This document shows positions 27,360 to 51,671 of a stretch of DNA of 64,000 bases, piece after piece. The notes beneath the pieces are model-generated. The model had not been told where the DNA came from, ran no database searches, and saw only the letters and a program-made list of their open reading frames with translations. The number at the start of each line of letters is the position of its first letter. The stretch's first letter is position 1. A program made the position numbers and the translations under genes. The DNA comes from Candidatus Nomurabacteria bacterium (lineage in GTDB: Bacteria; Patescibacteriota; Minisyncoccia; Phycocordibacterales; UBA9973): NCBI GenBank assembly GCA_023267215.1, contig JAHFNS010000002.1, positions 256,892 to 320,891 on the forward strand, read 5' to 3'.

Positions 27360-30300
27360 TTGGTGTATTTTAAATATAAATTTATATCTATGTATAAAAA
27401 ATTTTTGAATATTGGAGTTGTAGTATTGGTAGTTTTGACAATTGGTATAAGTTTTCTTTTTATATCTAATGTACTAGCCTCAGGTCAAAATCCTCCGACT
27501 TTAACGCTTTCTGCAAATCCATCGACAGTAGAATATGGAGATTCGACTACTATAACTTGGTCAACGACATATGCAGATAATTGTACCGCTTTTGAAAGTT
27601 GGTCAGGATCGAAAGCAGTTTCTGGGTCGCAGAATATTGGCAACATAACATCAAGTGGGGTTTATCGACTTACATGCACTGGGTCTGGAGGTAGTGTCAC
27701 AAAGGATGCTTATATTAATATTGCAGCTTCGCCTAAATGTGGCTGTTATTCTAGTTTAGTAAATAGTGCAAATGCTGTAGGGTTGCCTTATTGCAGTGTG
27801 TATAATGACAATAACTATTGTCGTGCTGAAGTTGCTGGGGGTGGTTGGGGGTATTGTAATTGGCAGCCAATGTATGATGAATACTTTTCGTACTGTCCTA
27901 CATTAGGAGTTAGTGCCACCCCCGTCTCTATTTTTACTAATTCAACAGGAACATCTACTTTGACTATCTCAAGTAGTGATATTTCTGGAAATATAACTTA
28001 TTCTGTAAATAAACCAGATGGTCTTACAAATACATCTGTAAAAAATGGTTTTACAAATAAATCTGCTGAAATTGAAATTATTGCAGGGTCTACTGCCGGA
28101 ACTTACACTGTGACCGTGACAGCAAGTGGAACTGGCACTAATGGGAATTCTATTTCTACGTCAAAAGATATTCTCGTGACCGTGACGGCTGCCCCTACAC
28201 CTACTTTAACCCTTACAGCAACTCCAATTTCACTCCCTATTAATTCAACAAAAACAGGGAATATAATTGGTGTGACTGCGAGTAATATTTCGGGAAATAT
28301 AAATCTTTTTAAAACTCTTCCAAATAATATTTCTGATGTAGCTATACCTGATTCAATTCCTTCTACTTCTCTCTCTACTTCTTACAGCGTTACAGCTGGA
28401 CCTAATGCTACTACTTCAGGAAATCCTGCATTAGTAACAATATCCGCAAGCGCAGTTGGGACAGATGGAAGTACAGTTACTAAATCTATAGATGTCCCTG
28501 TCACTGTGACTGCCGCCGCTGTTCCTGATCCTTCTGGAACTATTTCTGTAGCTCCGACTTCTTGTGTCATAGCAATTGGCGCATCTACTTGTCCTACGTA
28601 TGTAAGTTGGGGAACTTATGATTTAATTGATGGTGTCACCGCAGAAGTGACAAGAAATAATCCACCCAACACTCATGTTTCTTATGCTCCAAATAGAAGT
28701 TCATATTTTCATAATATTAATTATGGAAAAACTATTTTCTTTCTCTACCATAATGGAGTAGAGTTGGCTAAAAGTGAAGAAATCACTGCTTCTTGTGCTA
28801 GTGGTTCCACTTGGAACAATACTATATGTGCAACTAATACAACTGTTCCCACTGTCGTTACTTCTGGAGCTATAAGTGTAACATCAACTTCTGCAACAAT
28901 TGGTGGAAATGTTACTTCAGATGGAGGTTCAGCTATTATTTCTCGAGGAACTATTATTGGTCAACAGCAGCCCACTTCAGATGTCCCCAAAACTGCAGAA
29001 GGTGGTACAACAACTGGTCATTTTAATCAAAATAAAACAAATTTAACTCCAGAAACCTCCTATTATTACAAAGCCTATGCCGTAAATAGTGTTGGTACAG
29101 CTTATGGTGATGATGTATTGTTTACAACTAGTGCTAAACTTTTATCTGACCTTGTTGCTTCAGCACCTACTTCAACCACAGCAGTTGTCGGAGTCGCTCA
29201 AACATTTTCTTCAACCATTCTAAACTCAGGCACTGCTTCAACTGGGGCTAGTTTTTATAATGCATTTCAAATAGCTGATGATGTAAGTGGAGTAGATCCA
29301 AGATCGCCTGAATCTTCATCTTCGATGTCAGCACTTGCTGTAAATGGAACGGGTGTTGCTTCTGCCTCGCATACATTTGATACCGCTAGAACATATTCTG
29401 TTAGATTTTGTGCAGATAGTAACACTAGCTTTGTCGGAACCATCACTGAATCAAATGAAAATAACAACTGTAGTGCTTGGACAGACGTAGTGGTGAGCGA
29501 TGCTCCAACAGCTCCTACTTGTACTTCTCCAACTTCGACTAATATTACTCAGACTTCTGCTGTTATAGGGGGAAACATAACTTCAAGTGGTGGTTCTGCT
29601 ATTAACTCTCGAGGAACTATTCTTAGTTTAGCTGATGCGAATATTCCTAAAACTGCAGAAGGTGGTACAACAACTGGTGTCTTCACTCAAAGTAAAACAA
29701 GTTTAACTCCAGGGACCACTTATCACTACAAAGCTTATGCCACGAATGCTATTGGCACAGGGTATTGTCCTGATTCCACCTTTACGACTTTGCCTCCGGA
29801 TTCCTGCGGTGCTGGCAGTAGTTCTACTCCACAACTTACTGAACCAACAGGAACAAATGCTTGTACAACTGGAATATATGCAAACTCTCCAGCCGACACC
29901 ACAACTGCCGGATCGCAAGCATGGAATTGGTCTTGCGGAACAGTGACGACATGTTCTGCTCCTAAATATGGATGTACAACAGTTACAGATACTAATTACA
30001 ATGCGACTGGTCCAAATAATATTTATAATTGTGCTCTCACTTGTGCGAATGGTGCAACTAATTATCCGACTTGTTCAACACATACGATTACTTTTGATGG
30101 CAATGGTTCCACTGGTGGTTCTACTGCTAGTCAAACAATTCCAGAAGGAAATTCTGTTAATTTAAGAGCCAATGGTTTTACTAAAACTGGTTATTCATTT
30201 GCTGGTTGGGCAACCACTTCAACTGGAGTTGTTTCTTATATTGATCAAGCAAGTTATAGTATGGGAAGTGGAGATGTAACTCTTTATGCAAAATGGAATC

Positions 30301-32135
30301 AAGGAGATTCTTGCGGTACATATTCTGGAATTACTCCAAGACTTACCGAACCAACAACAAATCCAACAGCATGTAATCCAGGAACATATGCAAACTCTCC
30401 AGCCGACACCACAACTGCCGGATCGCAAGCATGGAATTGGTCTTGCGGAACAGTGACGACATGTTCTGCTCCTAAATATGGATGTACAACAGTTACAGAT
30501 ACTAATTACAATGCGACTGGTCCAAATAATATTTATAATTGTGCTCTCACTTGTGCGAATGGTGCAACTAATTATCCGACTTGTTCACTTCTTCCGACTG
30601 TCACCACTTCTTCAATAACAAACATAACTCAAACCACTGCCACAGGTGGAGGAAATGTAACTTCCGATGGAGGAGCGACAGTCTCAGTGAGTGGTCTAGT
30701 CTGGAGTACATCATCAAATCCGACAACAGCTGATAGTAAAACAACTAATGGTTGGGCACTCGGTGGACCATGGACAAGTAATATAACAGGATTAACAGCA
30801 AATACTCTTTATCATGTACGTGCATATGCCACGAATAGTGTCGGTACTTCTTATGGTGCCGATGTGACATTTACGACGACTAGCGTTGCACCAGTTTCGC
30901 CAACAGTTACAACAAGTGCAATTACAAACATAACTCAAACCACTGCCACAGGTGGAGGAAATGTAACTTCCGATGGAGGAGCGACAGTCTCAGTGAGTGG
31001 TCTAGTCTGGAGTACATCATCAAATCCGACAACAGCTGATAGTAAAACAACTAATGGTTGGGCACTCGGTGGACCATGGACAAGTAATATAACAGGATTA
31101 ACAGCAAATACTCTTTATCATGTACGTGCATATGCCACGAATAGTGTCGGTACTTCTTATGGTGCCGATGTGACATTTACGACGACTGACACATCATGTT
31201 CTGCCCCTCTTACTCAAAATGTCACAGTTGCTTGTGATTTACAAAATGGGGTAGCAGCGTCTTCTGGATCAGTAATAAGAAGTCAAACAAAAGTTTATCC
31301 AGATTGTACTTTTGGTACACCGGTGACAGTAAATAATTCTACTTATGTAAGTGACAATTGTGTGTATCCGACAATAGTAAATGGTGCTTGCTCATCTCCG
31401 GTTGCTCATTATAATTGTTTGACCGGTTCTCTAAGTAATTCAAGTGAAGATGCTAACTCTTATACTTGGAATTGTATAGGTTCTAGTAGTGGTTCAACAG
31501 CTTTTTGTTCAGAAAGTAAAAATAATGATGTCATTCTTCCGACAGGTACTATGTCTGCTACTGCTTGTTCAATACTAGAAGATGCTTCATCCTGTAACTC
31601 GACTCTCTCTTGGAGTATAGATAATCCTACAGGCTCTTCTGCAATTACTAGTTCTATCAATGATGCTGGTGCCTCTGCTCCAAATACAGAAGTTGTAACT
31701 GGAATTGCAGTTACAGGTAGTCATTCTGTTGTTGTTCCTTATAATTCCAGAGCTTTTTATCTTTACAATCAGGGCTCACCCAATGCTCTTTCTCAGATAA
31801 TAGTGAACGTAGATTGTGCAACTGGTACTTATTGGAATGATACTAAATGTGTAAAAAATAATATCACTCCTTCTCCGACGGTCACTATCACTGCTACTCC
31901 AAGCTTAATTGCTAAAGGTAAATCTTCAACACTCACTTGGTCTTCCACTCACGCAGATTCATGCAGTGGAGCAAATTTTAGCACAGATGGTGCAACCTTA
32001 GGCACTGTCTCAGTGAGTCCAACAGTTACAACTACTTACGGAATAAATTGTGTTAATGTCAATGCACAAACATCTGATCATACGACTGTCACTGTGACAG
32101 TAGGAGGTAAACAGCCAATTTACAAGGAACAGTAG
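27360..32135 (+). CDS. Giant (1591 aa) Thr/Ser-rich cell-surface protein with Fn3-like repeats and a Listeria-Bacteroides (InlB B-type) repeat
   Basis: N-terminal signal/TM anchor. Four Fn3-like units (..TNLTP.T.YYYKAYA.N..GT.YG..V.FTT). A Flg_new-type repeat (ITFDGNGSTGG..GYSFAGWATT..TLYAKW). Cys-containing modules. Confidence 0.8.
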   Translation: MVYFKYKFISMYKKFLNIGVVVLVVLTIGISFLFISNVLASGQNPPTLTLSANPSTVEYGDSTTITWSTTYADNCTAFESWSGSKAVSGSQNIGNITSSGVYRLTCTGSGGSVTKDAYINIAASPKCGCYSSLVNSANAVGLPYCSVYNDNNYCRAEVAGGGWGYCNWQPMYDEYFSYCPTLGVSATPVSIFTNSTGTSTLTISSSDISGNITYSVNKPDGLTNTSVKNGFTNKSAEIEIIAGSTAGTYTVTVTASGTGTNGNSISTSKDILVTVTAAPTPTLTLTATPISLPINSTKTGNIIGVTASNISGNINLFKTLPNNISDVAIPDSIPSTSLSTSYSVTAGPNATTSGNPALVTISASAVGTDGSTVTKSIDVPVTVTAAAVPDPSGTISVAPTSCVIAIGASTCPTYVSWGTYDLIDGVTAEVTRNNPPNTHVSYAPNRSSYFHNINYGKTIFFLYHNGVELAKSEEITASCASGSTWNNTICATNTTVPTVVTSGAISVTSTSATIGGNVTSDGGSAIISRGTIIGQQQPTSDVPKTAEGGTTTGHFNQNKTNLTPETSYYYKAYAVNSVGTAYGDDVLFTTSAKLLSDLVASAPTSTTAVVGVAQTFSSTILNSGTASTGASFYNAFQIADDVSGVDPRSPESSSSMSALAVNGTGVASASHTFDTARTYSVRFCADSNTSFVGTITESNENNNCSAWTDVVVSDAPTAPTCTSPTSTNITQTSAVIGGNITSSGGSAINSRGTILSLADANIPKTAEGGTTTGVFTQSKTSLTPGTTYHYKAYATNAIGTGYCPDSTFTTLPPDSCGAGSSSTPQLTEPTGTNACTTGIYANSPADTTTAGSQAWNWSCGTVTTCSAPKYGCTTVTDTNYNATGPNNIYNCALTCANGATNYPTCSTHTITFDGNGSTGGSTASQTIPEGNSVNLRANGFTKTGYSFAGWATTSTGVVSYIDQASYSMGSGDVTLYAKWNQGDSCGTYSGITPRLTEPTTNPTACNPGTYANSPADTTTAGSQAWNWSCGTVTTCSAPKYGCTTVTDTNYNATGPNNIYNCALTCANGATNYPTCSLLPTVTTSSITNITQTTATGGGNVTSDGGATVSVSGLVWSTSSNPTTADSKTTNGWALGGPWTSNITGLTANTLYHVRAYATNSVGTSYGADVTFTTTSVAPVSPTVTTSAITNITQTTATGGGNVTSDGGATVSVSGLVWSTSSNPTTADSKTTNGWALGGPWTSNITGLTANTLYHVRAYATNSVGTSYGADVTFTTTDTSCSAPLTQNVTVACDLQNGVAASSGSVIRSQTKVYPDCTFGTPVTVNNSTYVSDNCVYPTIVNGACSSPVAHYNCLTGSLSNSSEDANSYTWNCIGSSSGSTAFCSESKNNDVILPTGTMSATACSILEDASSCNSTLSWSIDNPTGSSAITSSINDAGASAPNTEVVTGIAVTGSHSVVVPYNSRAFYLYNQGSPNALSQIIVNVDCATGTYWNDTKCVKNNITPSPTVTITATPSLIAKGKSSTLTWSSTHADSCSGANFSTDGATLGTVSVSPTVTTTYGINCVNVNAQTSDHTTVTVTVGGKQPIYKEQ
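29877..30076 (+). repeat. 200-bp intragenic repeat, apparently nucleotide-identical to 30387-30587 (the Cys-rich module YANSPADTTTAGSQAWNWSCGTVTTCSAPKYGCTT..)
   Basis: Read directly from the two copies; the flanks are diverged. Confidence 0.7.
30613..31187 (+). repeat. Two tandem ~275-bp apparently identical units (30613-30888 and 30920-31187), each encoding an Fn3-like domain
   Basis: ITNITQTTATGGGNVTSDGGATVSVSGLVWSTSSNPTTADSKTTNGWALGGPWTSNITGLTANTLYHVRAYATNSVGTSYGADVTFTTT is encoded twice, with the same codons. Confidence 0.7.
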
Positions 32136-42861: not shown

Positions 42862-43449
42862 ATGGAAAACAAAATTGCTATTGATATAGTTTTACTTTTA
42901 TCAAATGAGACAAACGATATCATTTGTGATTTCAGCAAAAAAATAGTTACTCCAAAAGATTTAAAGCCATATGTGTTGGATAATATAAATTATATTCCAC
43001 ACATTTCTCTTTTAATGGGGGTTGTGACAAGCGACAAACTAAATTTAGTCAAAGAAAAAATTAAACCAATTTTAAATAAATATTTACCACTCGAAATAAC
43101 TTTTGACGGTTTAATAAAAAACAAATTTCCAGGACTTGAGATTAAAAAGACAAAAGAATTAGTTAATTTACAAAAAGACATAGCAGAAGCTATTCATTTA
43201 GATTATGATGCAACGAGAGATATGTTTTTTGATGCTGATATTTCAGATCAGGGGATAGAATGGATAAATAAATTTAGAGAAAATAATATTAATGACGGGA
43301 AATATAATATTCATATTACTCTTGGGTTAGGAGATATTGGTTCTTTAGACTTTAACTTACCTATTAAAACTACTATTAACACAGCAGCTGTTTGTCATAT
43401 TGGATATGGTTGTTCTTGTAGAAAAATTTTAGCTAAAATAGTTGTTTAA
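42862..43449 (+). CDS. 2H-phosphoesterase / LigT-like (2'-5' RNA ligase family) protein
   Basis: Two H-x-S/T-x motifs (PHISLL and HITLG). Confidence 0.5.
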   Translation: MENKIAIDIVLLLSNETNDIICDFSKKIVTPKDLKPYVLDNINYIPHISLLMGVVTSDKLNLVKEKIKPILNKYLPLEITFDGLIKNKFPGLEIKKTKELVNLQKDIAEAIHLDYDATRDMFFDADISDQGIEWINKFRENNINDGKYNIHITLGLGDIGSLDFNLPIKTTINTAAVCHIGYGCSCRKILAKIVV

Positions 43450-44625: not shown

Positions 44626-46365
44626 ATGAAAGAAAAAATAGAAAATTTAATAAAAGAAACACTAGAGAAACTGGATATTGAATACGGAAGTATTTCCCTT
44701 GAGCATCCAGCAGATTTGAAAATGGGAGATTATTCGACGAATGTGGCAATGACTCTCGCTAAGAATCTGAAGATGAATCCGAAAGATTTGGCAGATAAGA
44801 TAGTAGATTCTCTAAAGCAGGGCTTTAAAAATTCCCCAAAGCCCAGCTTTTTGGAAAAAATAGAAGCGAAAAATGGTTTTGTTAATTTTTATTTATCTCA
44901 GGAATTTTTTGTTGATTCTGTAAAAGAAATTTTAGAAAATAAAAATTTTGGACATAATAATTTTTTTATAAATAAAAAGGTAATGGTTGAATACACAGAC
45001 CCTAATCCTTTTAAACCTTTTCATATTGGGCATCTAATGACTAATGCAATAGGGGAATCTGTCTCACGAATCGTTGAATTTTCTGGAGCAAAAGCAATTC
45101 GCGCGAATTATCAAGGAGACGTTGGCCCACATGTAGCGAAAGCTATCTATGGCCTTTTGAAATTTAGTATGCCCGATGAAAATAAATCTATTCCCGAGAA
45201 GGCACGATATATAGGTGAGCTTTATGCAAAGGGTAGTGATGCTTATGAGACTGATGAAAATTCAAAAAAGGAAATAGATGATATAAATCAAAAAATTTAT
45301 GATAGAAGTGACGAAAGAATAAATGAGATTTATGATTGGGGAAGGAGAGTGACGCTTGAAGCATTTGAAGAAATTTATAAAATTCTTGGAACAAACTTTA
45401 ATTATTATTTTTTTGAAAGCCTTGTCGCCCCTATCGGAGAAAAAATAGTTAATGAAAACCTAAATAAAATTTTTGAAAAATCAGAAGGAGCAATAGTATT
45501 TAAAGCAGAAAAATATGACCCGAAACTTCACACCAGAGTTTTCATAAATTCCAAAGGACTTCCCACTTATGAGACTAAAGAATTGGGACTTTCCAAAGTG
45601 AAGTTTGAAAAAGAAAATCCTGACATCTCTATAGTGGTTACAGCTAATGAGCAGGGAGAGTATATGAAAGTAGTAGAACAGGCTCTTAAATTAATTAGTC
45701 CTTTATATGCTTCCAAAATGAAACATATTACTCACGGCATGATGCGTCTTGCTTCTGGCAAGATGTCTTCACGAAAAGGAAATGTGATTACTGGAGAATC
45801 TTTGTTGTTAGAATCTTGTGAGCAAATTTTAGAAAAGATAAAAGATAGGAATTTTACAGAAGAAGAAAAGAAACAAGTGAGTGAAGAAGTTGGGGTTGCT
45901 GCTCTCAAATATTCTATTCTAAAGCAAAATATTGGTGGAGATATTATTTATGATGCAGAAAAATCTATTTCTTTTGAAGGAGATTCTGGTCCATACTTAC
46001 AGTACTCATATGCACGAGCAAATTCTATTTTGGAAAAAGCAAAATTAGAAAATATTTTACCTGGATTTTTATTCTCAAAGTCGGGCTTTGAAGATTTAAA
46101 AAAGCCTGACTTTTGGGATATAGAAAAATTATTGTATAGATTCCCAGAAATTGTATATAGGTCGGGAGAAGAATTTGAGCCCCATTACATTGCAAATTAT
46201 TTGATAGAAATCGCTCGTGCATTTAATACCTATTATGGTAATACAAAAATAATAGATAAGAATGATCCAGAGTCTCCATATAAAATAGCTCTCACCTTGG
46301 CTTTCTCTTTGGTTATGAAAAATGGACTTTATCTTCTAGGTATAAAAGTCCCAGAAAGGATGTAG
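44626..46365 (+). CDS. argS: Arginine--tRNA ligase
   Basis: HIGH variant PFHIGHLMTN and an anticodon-binding C-terminus. Confidence 0.85.
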   Translation: MKEKIENLIKETLEKLDIEYGSISLEHPADLKMGDYSTNVAMTLAKNLKMNPKDLADKIVDSLKQGFKNSPKPSFLEKIEAKNGFVNFYLSQEFFVDSVKEILENKNFGHNNFFINKKVMVEYTDPNPFKPFHIGHLMTNAIGESVSRIVEFSGAKAIRANYQGDVGPHVAKAIYGLLKFSMPDENKSIPEKARYIGELYAKGSDAYETDENSKKEIDDINQKIYDRSDERINEIYDWGRRVTLEAFEEIYKILGTNFNYYFFESLVAPIGEKIVNENLNKIFEKSEGAIVFKAEKYDPKLHTRVFINSKGLPTYETKELGLSKVKFEKENPDISIVVTANEQGEYMKVVEQALKLISPLYASKMKHITHGMMRLASGKMSSRKGNVITGESLLLESCEQILEKIKDRNFTEEEKKQVSEEVGVAALKYSILKQNIGGDIIYDAEKSISFEGDSGPYLQYSYARANSILEKAKLENILPGFLFSKSGFEDLKKPDFWDIEKLLYRFPEIVYRSGEEFEPHYIANYLIEIARAFNTYYGNTKIIDKNDPESPYKIALTLAFSLVMKNGLYLLGIKVPERM

Positions 46366-46397: not shown

Positions 46398-49300
46398 ATG
46401 GAAGAAAAAACAAGCAAATCTGAAACAGTGCTTAGAGAAGAGCGGGTTTTGGAATTTTGGAAGAAAAATAATATTTTTCAGAAATCTTTAGAAAAAGAGT
46501 CACCGCTCGGTGAATTTGTTTTTTACGAAGGTCCGCCTACAGCCAATGGCAAGCCGGGTATTCATCATCTAGAAGCTCGAGCATTCAAGGATGCAATTCC
46601 TAGATACAAGACGATGAGAGGGTATCACGTCGGCCGCAAGGGTGGCTGGGATACTCATGGCCTACCAGTAGAACTTCAAGTGGAAAAAAAGTTGGGTCTA
46701 GATTCTAAAATTGCTATCGAAAAATACGGTATTGCGAGATTCAATCAAGAGTGTAAAGAAAGTGTTTGGCAATACACAGACGACTGGAGTAAATTTACTG
46801 AACGCATAGGCTACTTTGTTGATCAAGAAAATGCATATGTCACATATCACAATTCATACATAGAGTCTGTCTGGAATGTTCTGAAGAAAGTTAACGAACA
46901 AAAATTACTCTATAAGGATTATAAGGTTGTTCCATGGTGTCCTAGATGTGGAACAGTTCTTTCTTCTCATGAGCTTGCTCAAGGATATGAGAATATAAAA
47001 GATTTATCAGTTTATGTGAAGTTTAAAATAAAAAATCAAGACAATACTTTTATCCTCGCTTGGACGACGACTCCTTGGACATTGCCGGGCAATGTCGCTC
47101 TGGCTGTCGGGGAAAAGATCGATTATGTAAAGATAGAAAAAGAAAAAGAATTTTTAATATTAGCTAAAGCACGTTTGTCTGTAATTGATGGTGAATATAA
47201 AGTAGTAGAAGAATTTAAAGGGAAAGATTTGCTCGGATTAGAATACGAGCCTCTTTATCCATTTTTACAAGAAACTATTTCGGGAAAAGAAAAAGAAAAA
47301 ATGGATAAAGCATATAAAGTATATGCAGCTGACTTTGTGACCACAGAAGATGGTACTGGGGTGGTGCATACCGCAGTGATGTATGGTCAGGATGACTTCG
47401 TGCTAGGAAACGAGATAGGCTTGCCGAAGCATCATCTTGTAGGCCTCGATGGTAAATTTTTAGAGGGCACCGGATTTTTAGAAGGTAGATTTGTAAGAGA
47501 CGAAGAAGTGGCTGTGGACATTATTAAAGATTTAGCTAATCGTCCTACAGGTCCTCTCTTGTTTAAAAAAGAAAGGTACGAACACTCATACCCGCATTGT
47601 TGGCGTTGTCATACTGCACTCATTTATTACGCTCGAGATTCTTGGTACATAAAAATGTCTGATCCAAAGATCAAAGAAAAAATGATAGAGGAGAATAAAA
47701 GTATAAATTGGGAACCATCCCATATTCGTGATGGACGTTTTGGTGAGTGGTTGAAAGATATTAAAGATTGGGCAATCTCAAGAGAAAGATATTGGGGTAC
47801 GCCTCTTCCTGTCTGGACTTGTGACACTTGTAAAAATATGGAAGTTCTAGGAAGTGTAGAAGATATAAAACAAAGAACTAAAAAATCTGGTAATAAATAT
47901 TTTGTCATGCGACATGGGCAGGCAGAAAATAATATTGAAGATGAAAATAGTATTCATCATAAGGAGCTCAATCATATAGCAAAACTTACAGAAAAAGGGA
48001 AAGTGCAAGTTTTAGAAAATTCTAAAAATTTTAAAGAAAAGATAGATATGGTATTTTGTTCACCATTTCAAAGAGCGAAAGAAACTGCAAAAATAGTTTG
48101 TGAGCAAATTAATTTTCCATTTGATAAAATTGTTTATGATAGTCGAATACAAGAATGGGAATCTAGTTCTCTTTTTGAAGGTAAGAAAAAAGCTGTATTT
48201 AATAAATATTATGATGTAGATTATTTAGATAATCCGACTGAAACATTGCCTGACGGAGAAAGTTTTTCAGAATTAGTGAAAAGAGTTGGTGATTTTATTT
48301 ATGAATTAGAAACAAAATACTCAGGTAAAAATATTTTAATTTTTGGACATGGAAGTGCCACCAATGCTTTGAGTTTTGTAGTTCAAGGATTCTTATTGAA
48401 TTCTTTGTCTAGTAAAAATAATCTATTTAAAGAACTTCAAAATGCAGAAATTAAAAAATTTGATTTTGTTTTACTTCCACACAATGAAAATTATGAATTG
48501 GATTTACATAGACCATATGTTGATGAAATAGAACTTATTTGTAAATGTGGAGGAAAATTGGTACGCACAAAAGAAGTCATGGATGTATGGCTCGATTCTG
48601 GTGCTATGCCTTTTGCTCAGAGTCACTATCCTTTTGAAAATAAAGAATGGGTGGACGGAGTAGGTTACCCAGCAGATTTTATTTCTGAAGCCATAGATCA
48701 GACTCGTGGATGGTTTTACACCTTGCATGCAGTTGGAGTTTTGATGGGACGTGGAAAAGCATTTAAAAATGTTATTTGTTTAGGACATTTACTTGATGCA
48801 AAAGGGAAGAAGATGTCTAAATCTTTAGGTAATGTCGTCGACCCTTGGGTAATGATAGAAAAATATGGAGCGGATACGTTACGACTATGGATGTATTCTG
48901 TAAATCAGCCAGGTGAGTCTAAAAATTTTGATGAAAAGACAGTGCTCGAACTTCATAGACAAATATTCGGCCTACTTTACAATGTTTTGGTTTTCTATGA
49001 TCTCTATCGAGATCCTCAATTAGAAGTTTCTGAGTACAAAAAATCAGATGATGTTTTAGACCAATGGATTTCAGCTAGACTTGATGAATTGATAAAAGTT
49101 TCTACAGAAAATCTAGACAATTACAAACTTCTCGAACCTACGAGAGCTGTTCGTGATTTCATCGGTGATCTTTCTACTTGGTATCTACGTCGATCACGCG
49201 ACAGAATAAAAGATGGAGACAAAGGTGCAAAACAAACCTTATATTATGTCTTGAAAAATATTGCGAAGATCATGGCGCCATTTGCCCCGTTTGCAGCTGA

Positions 49301-49868
49301 AGATATATGGTTGAAATTGAAAAATGAAAAAGATGAAGAAAGTGTACACTTAGCAAGTTGGCCTACGGTAGAAAAAGTTGATGAAAAAATAATAGAAGAT
49401 ATGGAGAAAGTTCGAGAGATAGTTTCTCTTGGGCTCGAAGCTAGACAAAAATCAGGAATAAAAGTTCGTCAGCCGTTAGCTACTTTAAAATTTAAAGTTC
49501 AAGGAAAGCTTTCAGATGAACTGACTTCTCTTATCAAAGATGAAGTGAATGTGAAAGAAGTAGTCTTTGATGAAAAAATAGAAAATGAAGTCTTTCTTGA
49601 TACAAAAATCTCAGAAGAACTAAAAGAAGAGGGAAGCTATCGCGAACTCGTGAGAGGAATCCAAGATATGCGTAAAAAAATGGGGCTTACTCCTAGTGAC
49701 GTTGTCTCTATATCTGTCGACACCAGTGATGAAGGTAAAAAATTGATTCAAAAGTTCGAAAAAGATCTCTCAAAAGTAATCCTTGCTTCAAAAATAGAGT
49801 TTAAACCAAACGAAGGGGAAGAAATAAAAGTAGACGAACTAGTATTTAAAGTAAAAATAGAAAAGTAG
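46398..49868 (+). CDS. ileS: Isoleucine--tRNA ligase carrying an in-frame ~200-aa histidine-phosphatase (PGAM-like) domain insertion (about 47890-48500)
   Basis: Class I HIGH (PPTANGKPGIHHLE), the editing domain, WAISRERYWGTPLP, KMSKS (GKKMSKSLGN) and an anticodon-binding C-terminus. The inserted block has RHGQAENN, LTEKGKVQ, CSPFQRAKETA and ILIFGHGSATNAL, and lies between VLGSVEDI and DLHRPYVD. Confidence 0.85.
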   Translation: MEEKTSKSETVLREERVLEFWKKNNIFQKSLEKESPLGEFVFYEGPPTANGKPGIHHLEARAFKDAIPRYKTMRGYHVGRKGGWDTHGLPVELQVEKKLGLDSKIAIEKYGIARFNQECKESVWQYTDDWSKFTERIGYFVDQENAYVTYHNSYIESVWNVLKKVNEQKLLYKDYKVVPWCPRCGTVLSSHELAQGYENIKDLSVYVKFKIKNQDNTFILAWTTTPWTLPGNVALAVGEKIDYVKIEKEKEFLILAKARLSVIDGEYKVVEEFKGKDLLGLEYEPLYPFLQETISGKEKEKMDKAYKVYAADFVTTEDGTGVVHTAVMYGQDDFVLGNEIGLPKHHLVGLDGKFLEGTGFLEGRFVRDEEVAVDIIKDLANRPTGPLLFKKERYEHSYPHCWRCHTALIYYARDSWYIKMSDPKIKEKMIEENKSINWEPSHIRDGRFGEWLKDIKDWAISRERYWGTPLPVWTCDTCKNMEVLGSVEDIKQRTKKSGNKYFVMRHGQAENNIEDENSIHHKELNHIAKLTEKGKVQVLENSKNFKEKIDMVFCSPFQRAKETAKIVCEQINFPFDKIVYDSRIQEWESSSLFEGKKKAVFNKYYDVDYLDNPTETLPDGESFSELVKRVGDFIYELETKYSGKNILIFGHGSATNALSFVVQGFLLNSLSSKNNLFKELQNAEIKKFDFVLLPHNENYELDLHRPYVDEIELICKCGGKLVRTKEVMDVWLDSGAMPFAQSHYPFENKEWVDGVGYPADFISEAIDQTRGWFYTLHAVGVLMGRGKAFKNVICLGHLLDAKGKKMSKSLGNVVDPWVMIEKYGADTLRLWMYSVNQPGESKNFDEKTVLELHRQIFGLLYNVLVFYDLYRDPQLEVSEYKKSDDVLDQWISARLDELIKVSTENLDNYKLLEPTRAVRDFIGDLSTWYLRRSRDRIKDGDKGAKQTLYYVLKNIAKIMAPFAPFAAEDIWLKLKNEKDEESVHLASWPTVEKVDEKIIEDMEKVREIVSLGLEARQKSGIKVRQPLATLKFKVQGKLSDELTSLIKDEVNVKEVVFDEKIENEVFLDTKISEELKEEGSYRELVRGIQDMRKKMGLTPSDVVSISVDTSDEGKKLIQKFEKDLSKVILASKIEFKPNEGEEIKVDELVFKVKIEK

Positions 49869-49880
49869 TATAATTTAAAT

Positions 49881-50435
49881 ATGGAAGACTTTTTAATAGA
49901 AGCTAGAAAATTAGCATATAGTGAAACGGATAAAAATGATACTCCTCCGGTACCTATACTGAATTTATCCACAAACAAAGGTAAAGAAATTGCTCAAAAA
50001 CTAGGTGCGAATGTAGATATAGTTGAAGCTGGTACTTTACTTATGGATTGTGCTCTAGGTAGAGCCTTAAAAGAAAATCGCAGGGAAGAGCATGTCAAAA
50101 TGTCTTTAGATTTGGCTAACGAATTACTAATAAAATCTACTATAAATGAAGACGAAAAAGAAAATATCCGTCGTTGTATTTTACAACATCATGGAGTAGA
50201 TAAATTTTATTCTTTAGAATCAGAGATTTGTTGTAATGCAGACTGTTATAGATTTATTTCTTTGAAAGGATTTATTATGCAAGCTCGATATGGTAGAGAT
50301 ATGTCTTTTGAGGAAATGGTTGAGTTGTTCAAAGAAAAAGTGGATGAAAAATGGAATGCAATAAGCATCCCGTTTGTTCGAGAAGAACTAAGTCCTCAAC
50401 ACAAAATTATTCTTGAAATGTTAAAGGTTTTGTAA
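49881..50435 (+). CDS. Hypothetical protein
   Basis: ORF; no confident motif. Confidence 0.35.
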   Translation: MEDFLIEARKLAYSETDKNDTPPVPILNLSTNKGKEIAQKLGANVDIVEAGTLLMDCALGRALKENRREEHVKMSLDLANELLIKSTINEDEKENIRRCILQHHGVDKFYSLESEICCNADCYRFISLKGFIMQARYGRDMSFEEMVELFKEKVDEKWNAISIPFVREELSPQHKIILEMLKVL

Positions 50436-50446
50436 AAATAAAGTAG

Positions 50447-51079
50447 ATGAAAATTTTTAAATTTGAACAATCTGGTTTTATTCTAGAAACTGAAAAAGGT
50501 TTTCGTGTGGCTTTTGATATAGGTAATAAAACACCAATTGAAAAACTTGAAAATGTGAAAGTAGATGCGATGTTTGTAACCCATATTCATGGGGACCATT
50601 TTTCTTTAGAGCAAATTAAAAAATTATCTCCAAAAAAATTATATTTAGGAGAACAGTGTAAAGAAGCTCTTGGTAAATATTCACCTCCTTTTGAAACCAT
50701 AGAAGTGAAAGCTGACAATCAAGTTAATATCGAAGATATAAAAATTAAAATTTTTGATGTAGATCATGGTCCTAATGTTACTGCCCCGGTAAAGCAAAAT
50801 TTTGGTTTTTTGATAGTAGTAGATAATAAAAAAATATATTTTGCTGGTGAAATGTTTTATGAATCTGGTATTAGTGTTTCAAATCTAGAAGTTGATTATG
50901 CTTTTTTCCCAATAGGAACTTTTTATACATTTGGCCCTAAAGAGGCATTTGCCTTTGCAAAAAAATTTAAAAAAATTGGAGAAATTATACCAATGCATTA
51001 TGAAAAAACGCCAGAAACAAAAATTGAGTTTTTAAACTTAATAAAAGGTTATTTTAATATAAGCCAATTTACTATATAA
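50447..51079 (+). CDS. MBL-fold metallo-hydrolase
   Basis: VTHIHGDHF motif. Confidence 0.55.
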   Translation: MKIFKFEQSGFILETEKGFRVAFDIGNKTPIEKLENVKVDAMFVTHIHGDHFSLEQIKKLSPKKLYLGEQCKEALGKYSPPFETIEVKADNQVNIEDIKIKIFDVDHGPNVTAPVKQNFGFLIVVDNKKIYFAGEMFYESGISVSNLEVDYAFFPIGTFYTFGPKEAFAFAKKFKKIGEIIPMHYEKTPETKIEFLNLIKGYFNISQFTI

Positions 51080-51086
51080 TTTATCT

Positions 51087-51671
51087 ATGAAAAAAGTATT
51101 TATAATACATGGTTTTGGTGGAATTCCAAATGGAGGCTGGATTCCATGGTTAATGGAGGAGTTGGCTAAAGAAAAAATTTATGCCTGTGCTTTGCCTATG
51201 CCAGAATCAAAAAAACCTATTGTTTCCAAGTGGACAGAAGAGATTGTTCATGCGATAGAGAACTCAACAGAAGATGAAATTTATCTAATAGGGCACAGCT
51301 TAGGTGCTTCCGCTATCTTGAAATTTCTTGAATCTTACGATGGCAATAAAAAAATTTCAGGTGTTGTTTTGATGTCTGGCTTGATTAGTCCATTGGAAGC
51401 TCTAGATCCTGAAAGTAAATATCGTTTAATAGATTCTTTTGTTGTCCCACCAATAAATTTTGAAAATATAAAAAATAAGGCGGATAAATTTACTGTTTTT
51501 CATAGTATTGATGATCCGGCTGTACCATTTTCTCATGCTGAAAAAATATCTAGTGCACTTGATTGCAAACTTACGAAAGTAGAAAAAGGAGGACATTTTT
51601 ATATCCTATCTGAACCTATTTGTTATGAAATACCAGGATTGATCGAAGTCGTGAGAGAAGTTTTAAATTAA
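51087..51671 (+). CDS. Alpha/beta-hydrolase (YdeN/RBBP9-like serine hydrolase)
   Basis: GHSLGAS nucleophile elbow. Confidence 0.55.
   Translation: MKKVFIIHGFGGIPNGGWIPWLMEELAKEKIYACALPMPESKKPIVSKWTEEIVHAIENSTEDEIYLIGHSLGASAILKFLESYDGNKKISGVVLMSGLISPLEALDPESKYRLIDSFVVPPINFENIKNKADKFTVFHSIDDPAVPFSHAEKISSALDCKLTKVEKGGHFYILSEPICYEIPGLIEVVREVLN

Follow-up and report, generated by a model that had tools for sequence, protein, structure and literature searches.

A histidine-phosphatase domain nested in the isoleucyl-tRNA synthetase of a Candidatus Nomurabacteria bacterium and its free counterpart beside ileS

We analyzed a 64,000-nucleotide stretch of Candidatus Nomurabacteria DNA (assembly GCA_023267215.1, contig JAHFNS010000002.1, positions 256,892 to 320,891 of the forward strand; hereafter the window, with positions counted from its first letter) in which ileS, the gene for isoleucyl-tRNA synthetase (IleRS), encloses a complete histidine-phosphatase (HP) domain in frame. 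The domain is a genuine, stably inherited and lineage-wide branch-1 HP nested in connective peptide 3 (CP3) of a type-2 IleRS. Across relatives, a single HP subfamily alternates between this nested form and a free gene abutting ileS, and the two arrangements are mutually exclusive. What is new here is the genetic tie between this HP subfamily and ileS, whether the HP is free or fused. Sequence comparison and the analogies drawn below make it somewhat probable, in our judgment, that the HP is a dedicated partner of IleRS, in which case the window would hold the fused form of a two-gene module.

Limits, residues and fold of the nested domain

Inspection of ileS (46398..49868, + strand) reveals a single unbroken frame of 1156 codons, as an earlier note made from the letters alone had claimed, and its product passes the curated ileS equivalog TIGR00392 with 852 bits against a cutoff of 621. 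The closest solved structures are the Priestia megaterium IleRS2 (8C8W, E 1e-248) and the T. thermophilus enzyme (1ILE). Pfam splits the tRNA-synt_1 match around His_Phos_1 and also matches Anticodon_1 and DUF5915, the C-terminal domains of the type-2 form. Judged by its motifs, the host looks fully functional: the KMSKS signature loop (aa 805-809, 48810..48824, + strand) is intact and invariant in alignment A4, the Thr-rich editing motif is retained as TTTPWT, and the class I signature has the IleRS2 form, with a non-canonical GIHH (aa 54-57, 46557..46568, + strand) replacing HxGH. A G/AxHH signature has been described for IleRS2 and tied to mupirocin hyper-resistance (PMC10485003).

Alignment to 8C8W defines the limits of the insertion. 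Query residue 492 maps to chain residue 476 and query residue 698 to chain residue 483; the extra segment is therefore aa 493-697 (47874..48488, + strand), close to the 47890-48500 given in the earlier note, and its roughly 205 residues stand in place of a loop of about 6 residues at the CP3 tip. Two linkers (KKSGNKYF... and ...LPHNENY), conserved in alignment A1, connect it to the host. The first half of the CP3 zinc knuckle, C475-x2-C478 (47820..47831, + strand), lies upstream of the insert and the second half, C715-x-C717 (48540..48548, + strand), lies downstream, with both cysteines of each half invariant in alignment A4, which places the HP domain at the tip of the knuckle. The stems of the knuckle are the WGTPLP and DVWLDSG segments. 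CP3 comprises residues 473-534 in the C. albicans enzyme, and a zinc-binding motif is present in T. thermophilus CP3 (PMC7191050); the CP3 stems border the synthetic active site (PMC12077802; PMC7191050).

The insert has the score, the catalytic motifs and the alpha/beta phosphoglycerate-mutase-like fold of a branch-1 HP, with phosphatase activity predicted from sequence and model. Pfam places His_Phos_1 (PF00300) at aa 502-660 (47901..48377, + strand), in agreement with the structure model and with Foldseek; the match reaches 81 bits in context (E 1e-22) and 85 bits for the excised segment (E 5e-24) against a cutoff of 21.7. All HP motifs quoted in the earlier note were found where it had put them, namely RHGQAENN (aa 505-512), LTEKGKVQ (530-537), SPFQRAKETA (555-564), DGESFSE (619-625) and FGHGS (649-653). 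The complete set for phospho-histidine catalysis is present: R505, H506, N512, R559, E586 and H651. Invariance singles out R505-H506 of the RHG motif (47910..47915), where H506 is the predicted phospho-accepting nucleophile, R559 of SPFQRAKETA as the second phosphate-binding arginine (48072..48074), and H651 of FGHGS as the second catalytic histidine (48348..48350), all on the + strand. The predicted proton donor is the near-invariant E586 of RIQEWE (48153..48155, + strand), which is replaced only by Asp, in 7 of 158 domains; on this one detail of the active site the earlier reading needs amending, as the donor is not the Glu of the GES motif.

Structural comparison was carried out with the isolated domain, for which AlphaFold yielded a confident HP fold (predicted local distance difference test, pLDDT, 86.6; predicted template-modeling score, pTM, 0.87). 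At E<=0.001 Foldseek returned 279 matches in the PDB; the top 50 listed all belong to the HP superfamily. The top matches, at probability 1.0, are the metal-independent phosphoserine phosphatase PspA (4IJ5/4IJ6), Rv2419c (4PZ9), the riboflavin-pathway HFP (9MMH), PhoE (1H2E) and CobC (6E4B). These compact branch-1 HPs share the fold of the insert, its size of about 200 aa and its R-H...R...E...H catalytic set, with template-modeling (TM) scores of 0.62-0.76, but they are only 16-25% identical to it and none is nested in or beside a tRNA synthetase. The larger dPGM mutases align worse than the compact phosphatases (TM by target ~0.6), and the insert scores below the cutoffs of both the dPGM model TIGR01258 (29.5 bits vs 81.7) and the archaeal dPGM model NF038349 (55 vs 225). 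The equivalog models for CobC (55.3 vs 162.9), PspA (43.4 vs 350) and SixA (31.6 vs 74.5) likewise remain below their cutoffs. Because all specific curated models fall far short, the sequence identifies the insert as a generic branch-1 member and not as an orthologue of a characterized enzyme. The defence-protein models of PADLOC matched neither the insert nor the free HP, and the only match in PHROGs is a family of unknown function. A full-length AlphaFold model built from 21 close relatives was set aside as unusable for geometry, being confident only in the HP and C-terminal parts (pLDDT 61, pTM 0.40).

Conservation is concentrated on the catalytic residues. Fourteen inserts that are 31-42% identical to that of the window keep R505, H506, N512, S555, R559, E621, R629 and H651 invariant and E586 nearly so. 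The full consensus pattern is present in 120 of the 158 HP-domain hits extracted from all loci; nearly all variants replace N512 by Gln or E586 by Asp, the rest are truncated domains, and every complete domain keeps the equivalents of R505-H506, R559 and H651. Among close relatives, identity is 55% for the insert versus 74% for the host, with 12% versus 43-49% of columns invariant. The GC content is 0.26-0.29 inside the insert versus 0.35-0.43 in the flanks and 0.339 for the whole window. Faster evolution and lower GC are what one would expect, from sequence, of an accessory domain constrained mainly at its active site.

Distribution and linkage to ileS

The nested architecture recurs well beyond the window. 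Three contigs encode the identical 1156-aa protein, including one from a separate Logan assembly of SRR14366760, and the protein is present in NCBI, ENA and Logan, with the longest contig reaching 325 kb. In a species survey, one genome per GTDB species was scanned with insert-derived patterns; relatives of the insert turned up in at least 72 species genomes, the closed chromosome CP060229.1 included, and the same insertion is found in at least 68 Patescibacteria species genomes. Among the matches listed, nearly all are Paceibacteria-type Patescibacteria (Nomura-, Zambryski-, Yanofsky-, Colwell- and Wolfebacteria). At the survey loci ileS is one frame of ~1,100-1,250 aa or is interrupted only by a contig end, the exceptions being two divergent Peribacteria-labelled loci. 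An exhaustive profile search at E<=1e-30 returned 477 clusters (50% identity); most of the best 150 of these 477 are IleRSs with the domain near residues 470-720, and PF00300 is present in all 120 of the closest full-length relatives (65-78% identical). The earlier note's reading of an in-frame domain and not a chimera is borne out by the identical protein in independent assemblies and by relatives with the same architecture, and its question of whether the insertion is lineage-wide is answered by carriers across Patescibacteria. The idea of a split gene was rejected, as short HP or IleRS proteins on long contigs proved to be frameshift artefacts; one such contig (L156) has EF-Tu and other genes fragmented too.

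The two Peribacteria-labelled loci (L072 and L073) show an ileS frame split into short open reading frames (ORFs); the cause may be a different genetic code or else poor assembly. In L073 a divergent HP is still located at the CP3 site, and tblastn implied extra insertions near window-equivalent aa ~213-219 and ~870-887, each of ~150-170 aa.

In some lineages the HP is a free gene of ~190-210 aa between argS and ileS. The closest stand-alone relative of the insert (P0072; 209 aa, 38% identical) occupies this position in the order argS-HP-ileS at locus L074, where the 960-aa IleRS has ~12 residues at the insertion point; the window shares the argS-ileS gene order with this locus, with the HP inside ileS. 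A Staskawiczbacteria genome (L157/L158) has argS-HP-ileS (946 aa) followed by recO and a DUF11-like gene, which is the synteny of the window with the HP outside ileS.

Linkage between the HP and ileS was assessed in a metagenome scan with patterns taken from stand-alone HPs only. The scan used the closer stand-alone subset A3, the first stand-alone alignment, A2, being too diverse, and the best 80 loci were kept, of which 77 were informative and 3 lay on contigs that were too short. The HP is inside ileS in 37 of the 77 informative loci, is a separate gene directly upstream of ileS in the other 40, and is found elsewhere in none. In 60 of the same 77 loci argS lies upstream. Free and nested forms never coincide: among 154 HP-bearing loci, 107 have the inserted form only, 47 have the free form only and none has both. 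The stop of the free HP gene precedes the ileS start by a median of 3 nt, with overlaps of 4-10 nt in 14 of the 39 pairs. Because the free gene abuts or overlaps the ileS start in this way, it is probably translationally coupled with ileS.

Neighbor-joining trees of HP cores and of IleRS C-terminal halves gave 10 and 6 changes between free and inserted states by Fitch parsimony, but the trees are star-like with near-zero internal branches, and the origins of the CP3 insertion are not countable. Recruitment of a basic free HP in trans by electrostatics was dropped as an idea. Across loci L002-L155 the free-HP lineages have median isoelectric points of 9.3 for ArgRS, 8.7 for IleRS and 9.9-10.0 for the HP (net charge of the free HP +19), versus 5.8, 7.2 and 7.0 in the inserted-HP lineages. 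ArgRS and IleRS thus move in the direction of their HP, and the charge difference between the groups is a proteome-wide shift. The GC content of free-HP and inserted-HP loci is only slightly different, at 0.357 versus 0.384.

Additional copies, other hosts and the surrounding locus

HP domains of this kind are not restricted to a single copy or a single host. Some IleRSs contain two or three HP domains, which lie one behind the other at CP3, at a second site (~aa 870-887 in window numbering) between the KMSKS region and the anticodon-binding domain, or at a third (~aa 750-759), and all additional copies in IleRS have the full catalytic set. A valyl-tRNA synthetase (ValRS; P0121, at L161:366-3851 and also in L162) contains four HP domains: the CP2 region has one, and the other three follow each other behind 'WWGHRIPVW', at a position equivalent to CP3; valS models score it at 381-411 bits versus 199 for ileS. 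Its contig is 3.9 kb long with ~2x coverage and an in-frame TAA stop lies in the fourth HP copy, and the four-HP ValRS should be taken as a lead only. At L085:4378-6564, on a single metagenome contig, ArgRS and a free-type HP share one frame of 729 aa, the argS stop being lost (...SSPQQM-KRIELNNKYYIMRHG...). The complete HP copies of the ValRS and of the ArgRS fusion likewise retain their catalytic residues.

The neighborhood of ileS is sparse in recurrent genes. In the window argS (44626..46365, + strand) is the conserved upstream neighbor, recognized by its ORF and by synteny. Across 153 related loci only argS, recO and the DUF11-like gene recur beside ileS, with argS present in 111 and recO and the DUF11-like gene in ~85. 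No second ileS lies within the 64-kb window. Between ileS and recO, positions 49881-51671 of the window encode a 184-aa ORF, a metallo-beta-lactamase-fold protein and a Ser_hydrolase, which are present in just 1, 2 and 6 of the 153 loci and look like a lineage-specific insertion. The 184-aa ORF (49881-50435) has no Pfam match within the E-value threshold of 0.001, its best match, SHOCT_2 at E 0.066, being at chance level, and it is unrelated to the HD domain of the relative P0358 described below. A 195-aa ORF at 42862-43449 has a weak match to 2'-5' RNA ligase/2H phosphoesterase (PF13563, 23 bits, under the cutoff of 27) and none of the 153 loci keeps it near ileS; it would gain interest only if the HP does take part in tRNA-end repair, a reading discussed below. 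A free Y1_Tnp gene is located two genes upstream of argS in the Staskawiczbacteria genome (L157/L158). ARAGORN found no tRNA or tmRNA gene across the 64-kb window, and a very long ORF of 1591 aa with a TTG start occupies positions 27360-32135.

Competing explanations and meaning

To interpret the HP as a dedicated partner of IleRS is to liken it to the accessory and editing factors of aminoacyl-tRNA synthetases (aaRSs), which occur either free or inserted. The INS domain of ProRS has free counterparts in YbaK/ProX, and the editing domain of AlaRS has one in AlaX. As for the HP, one family in each case alternates between a free gene and a synthetase domain in a mutually exclusive manner, and aaRS editing modules, too, occupy connective-peptide insertions of the catalytic domain. 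The likeness is one of organization: the editing modules are aminoacyl-ester hydrolases, whereas the HP has a phosphomonoesterase fold. We know of no phosphate-bearing editing substrate for IleRS, and to our knowledge the known aminoacylation cycle contains no phosphomonoester substrate. If the HP is indeed a dedicated partner, it would act as a compact small-cap phosphomonoesterase by way of phospho-H506, held beside the synthetic site. Its substrate might, speculatively, be a nucleotide-type phosphomonoester of the aminoacylation cycle, with a 2'/3'-phosphorylated tRNA acceptor end and a nucleotide product or inhibitor as equally speculative candidates.

Several observations weigh against a dedicated partnership. 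Within 120-230 bp of the divergent free members P0264 and P0223 there is no coding sequence for argS or ileS. The argS-ileS-recO order is a common, conserved arrangement of housekeeping genes whose adjacency could be historical, and the strong basic charge of free HPs is a trait of the whole proteome in their lineages. Other domains, for which a part in aminoacylation is not plausible, have also entered these synthetases. An IS200-type Y1 transposase (PF01797, 55 bits) lies in frame in the CP1/editing region of the HP-bearing IleRS P0178 (aa ~314-473, window-equivalent aa ~287). A 1395-aa IleRS (P0229) adds a nested P-loop kinase-like domain at aa ~726-911 (window-equivalent aa 742-757, the third site named above) to its CP3 HP, with Walker A GACGAGKTT and matches to AAA_18 (32.8 bits), AAA_33 (27.7) and Zeta_toxin (25.4). 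A C-terminal HD domain is present in P0352, P0353 and P0358 (~1330 aa; 67-69% identical to the window protein), matched in P0358 as an HD phosphohydrolase domain at aa 1136-1178 (PF01966, 32 bits vs a cutoff of 22). Because transposase, kinase-like and HD domains are nested or fused here as well, the IleRSs of this family are clearly permissive hosts, and nesting alone is no proof of a functional link. The closest solved folds of the HP are metabolic small-molecule phosphatases acting on phosphoserine, on glucosyl-3-phosphoglycerate and in the riboflavin pathway (HFP), together with PhoE and CobC, and none acts on nucleic acid. The full-length model is too poor to orient the HP active site, and the link between phosphatase and aminoacylation, together with the substrate guess, is something we only infer.

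Much of this would also fit a neutral capture, in which a housekeeping metabolic HP gene, long located between argS and ileS, moved by local rearrangements in frame into permissive surface loops of IleRS and kept its own function with no coupling to aminoacylation, carried along by an essential and well-expressed host. We regard such a capture as possible, though on the doubtful side. The small-molecule character of the nearest folds, the NCBIfam equivalogs lying far below their cutoffs, loops that accept transposase, kinase-like and HD domains too, an insert that evolves faster than its host and a surrounding block of plain housekeeping synteny are all as a capture would have them. There is also a precedent in the bifunctional RNase H/acid phosphatase of the Rv2228c type (NF005567), where an HP is fused to a nucleic-acid enzyme and whose HP half the insert partly matches at 52-55 bits; that protein, however, is an end-to-end fusion with another partner, whereas the insert is nested and stays far below the cutoff of 326. 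What a neutral capture accounts for less well is that the subfamily is away from ileS in none of the 77 informative or the 154 HP-bearing loci, that free and fused forms co-occur in none of them, and that the spacing and overlap of the free gene with ileS suggest translational coupling. Chance proximity likewise explains poorly the three or more insertion sites, the catalytic tandem copies and the class I hosts ValRS and ArgRS. A more specific proposal, which we consider unlikely, sees the HP as an activity built into the class Ia synthetases of Patescibacteria, by which tRNA ends would be repaired or detoxified. At the acceptor end of tRNA(Ile), as well as of tRNA(Val) and tRNA(Arg) in the other hosts, it would remove a 2'/3'-phosphate or a (pyro)phosphate added by a toxin, on the very synthetase that has to charge the tRNA, and in one lineage it would have the nested P-loop kinase as its companion. 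The intact catalytic set, the ileS linkage, the CP3 position and the recurrence that includes ValRS and ArgRS are compatible with this proposal. Kinase and phosphatase are also paired in the T4 PNK-type enzymes of RNA end-healing and in PFK-2/FBPase-2, where FBPase-2 is itself a branch-1 HP. That pairing resembles P0229 only, the single cluster with a kinase and a phosphatase on one synthetase, and the kinase matches of P0229 are weak and generic, while the window protein has no kinase domain.

The remaining alternatives carry less weight. That the HP is a protein phosphatase, which clears an inhibitory phosphate from the synthetase (for example from the KMSKS serine) or from another translation protein, strikes us as improbable. 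HipA/HipT-type kinase toxins target the KMSKS-loop serine in other class I synthetases, the further HP hosts are class I synthetases too, and the HP superfamily includes SixA, which the insert matches in part at 31.6 bits. That score is under its cutoff, however, the structural neighbors are small-molecule enzymes, no cognate kinase was found in the conserved neighborhood and no defence-system model matched. Still less credence is due to the idea that the insert is selfish or mobile, akin to an intein or derived from a transposon, or that it is a non-catalytic structural spacer. The spread over several sites and hosts and the tandem copies give it a superficial likeness to a mobile module, one relative does hold a real transposase domain, and the GC of the insert is below that of its flanks. 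Inteins, moreover, are large in-frame insertions in essential genes, as the insert is, and the insert has an H-N near its C-terminal junction. Yet the insert is a complete phosphatase that lacks the HINT fold and intein blocks as well as an N-terminal Cys/Ser, and Pfam gave no intein or HINT match in the window IleRS, whose junctions read ...KKSGNKYF and LPHN-E. The earlier note was right to exclude an intein but wrong that no terminal HN exists: H695-N696 lies near the junction (LPHNENYE), and the exclusion stands because Glu, rather than Cys, Ser or Thr, follows it and because the segment has a phosphatase fold. The borders show no terminal inverted repeats or target-site duplications, only chance AT-rich repeats; the catalytic residues are strictly kept in every copy; position and linkers are stable among relatives that are 31-42% identical; and the low GC is as expected of a less constrained segment of an AT-rich genome. 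The selfish alternative that the earlier note had entertained is thus disfavored by the missing terminal repeats, the strict catalytic conservation and the free form adjoining ileS. An assembly chimera or frameshift that joined a separate HP gene to ileS can practically be dismissed. Short HP-containing fragments do occur on some long contigs, but they stem from assemblies prone to error, with EF-Tu broken as well, while the 1156-aa protein was assembled identically and independently and hundreds of divergent relatives, a closed chromosome among them, share the in-frame architecture.

Our search of the literature, a recent broad preprint on IleRS evolution included, turned up no account of an HP within or next to an aaRS. 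The earlier note's view that the architecture is undescribed therefore agrees with the literature, but hundreds of such proteins have been available in public databases for years, named just IleRS or 'class I tRNA ligase family protein', among them a Nomurabacteria GW2011 entry in UniRef. The labels ignore the nested HP, which is a systematic gap in annotation. An extra catalytic domain in IleRS is not unprecedented as such, given the NCBIfam model for an N-acetyltransferase domain-containing IleRS (NF040702). Its additional domain is a GNAT and not an HP, however, and the window protein, at 304 bits against a cutoff of 1999, is not a member.

The aaRSs are among the best-studied enzymes, and extra domains found in them, whether for editing, tRNA binding or signaling, have repeatedly revealed new biology. 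Here a conserved phosphatase is tied to IleRS over a large part of the Patescibacteria, and nothing in the aminoacylation cycle as now known explains it. Were the coupling not functional, the family would still be an unusually clear example of a neighboring gene that came to be nested in an essential enzyme, and it would show the CP loops of class Ia synthetases to be permissive sites for such events. If the coupling is functional, it would point to an unrecognized step in these minimal symbiotic bacteria, which may be tRNA-end repair, nucleotide clearance or the reversal of phosphorylation. Should the tRNA-end repair reading be true, aminoacylation would be linked to a form of quality control that is new.

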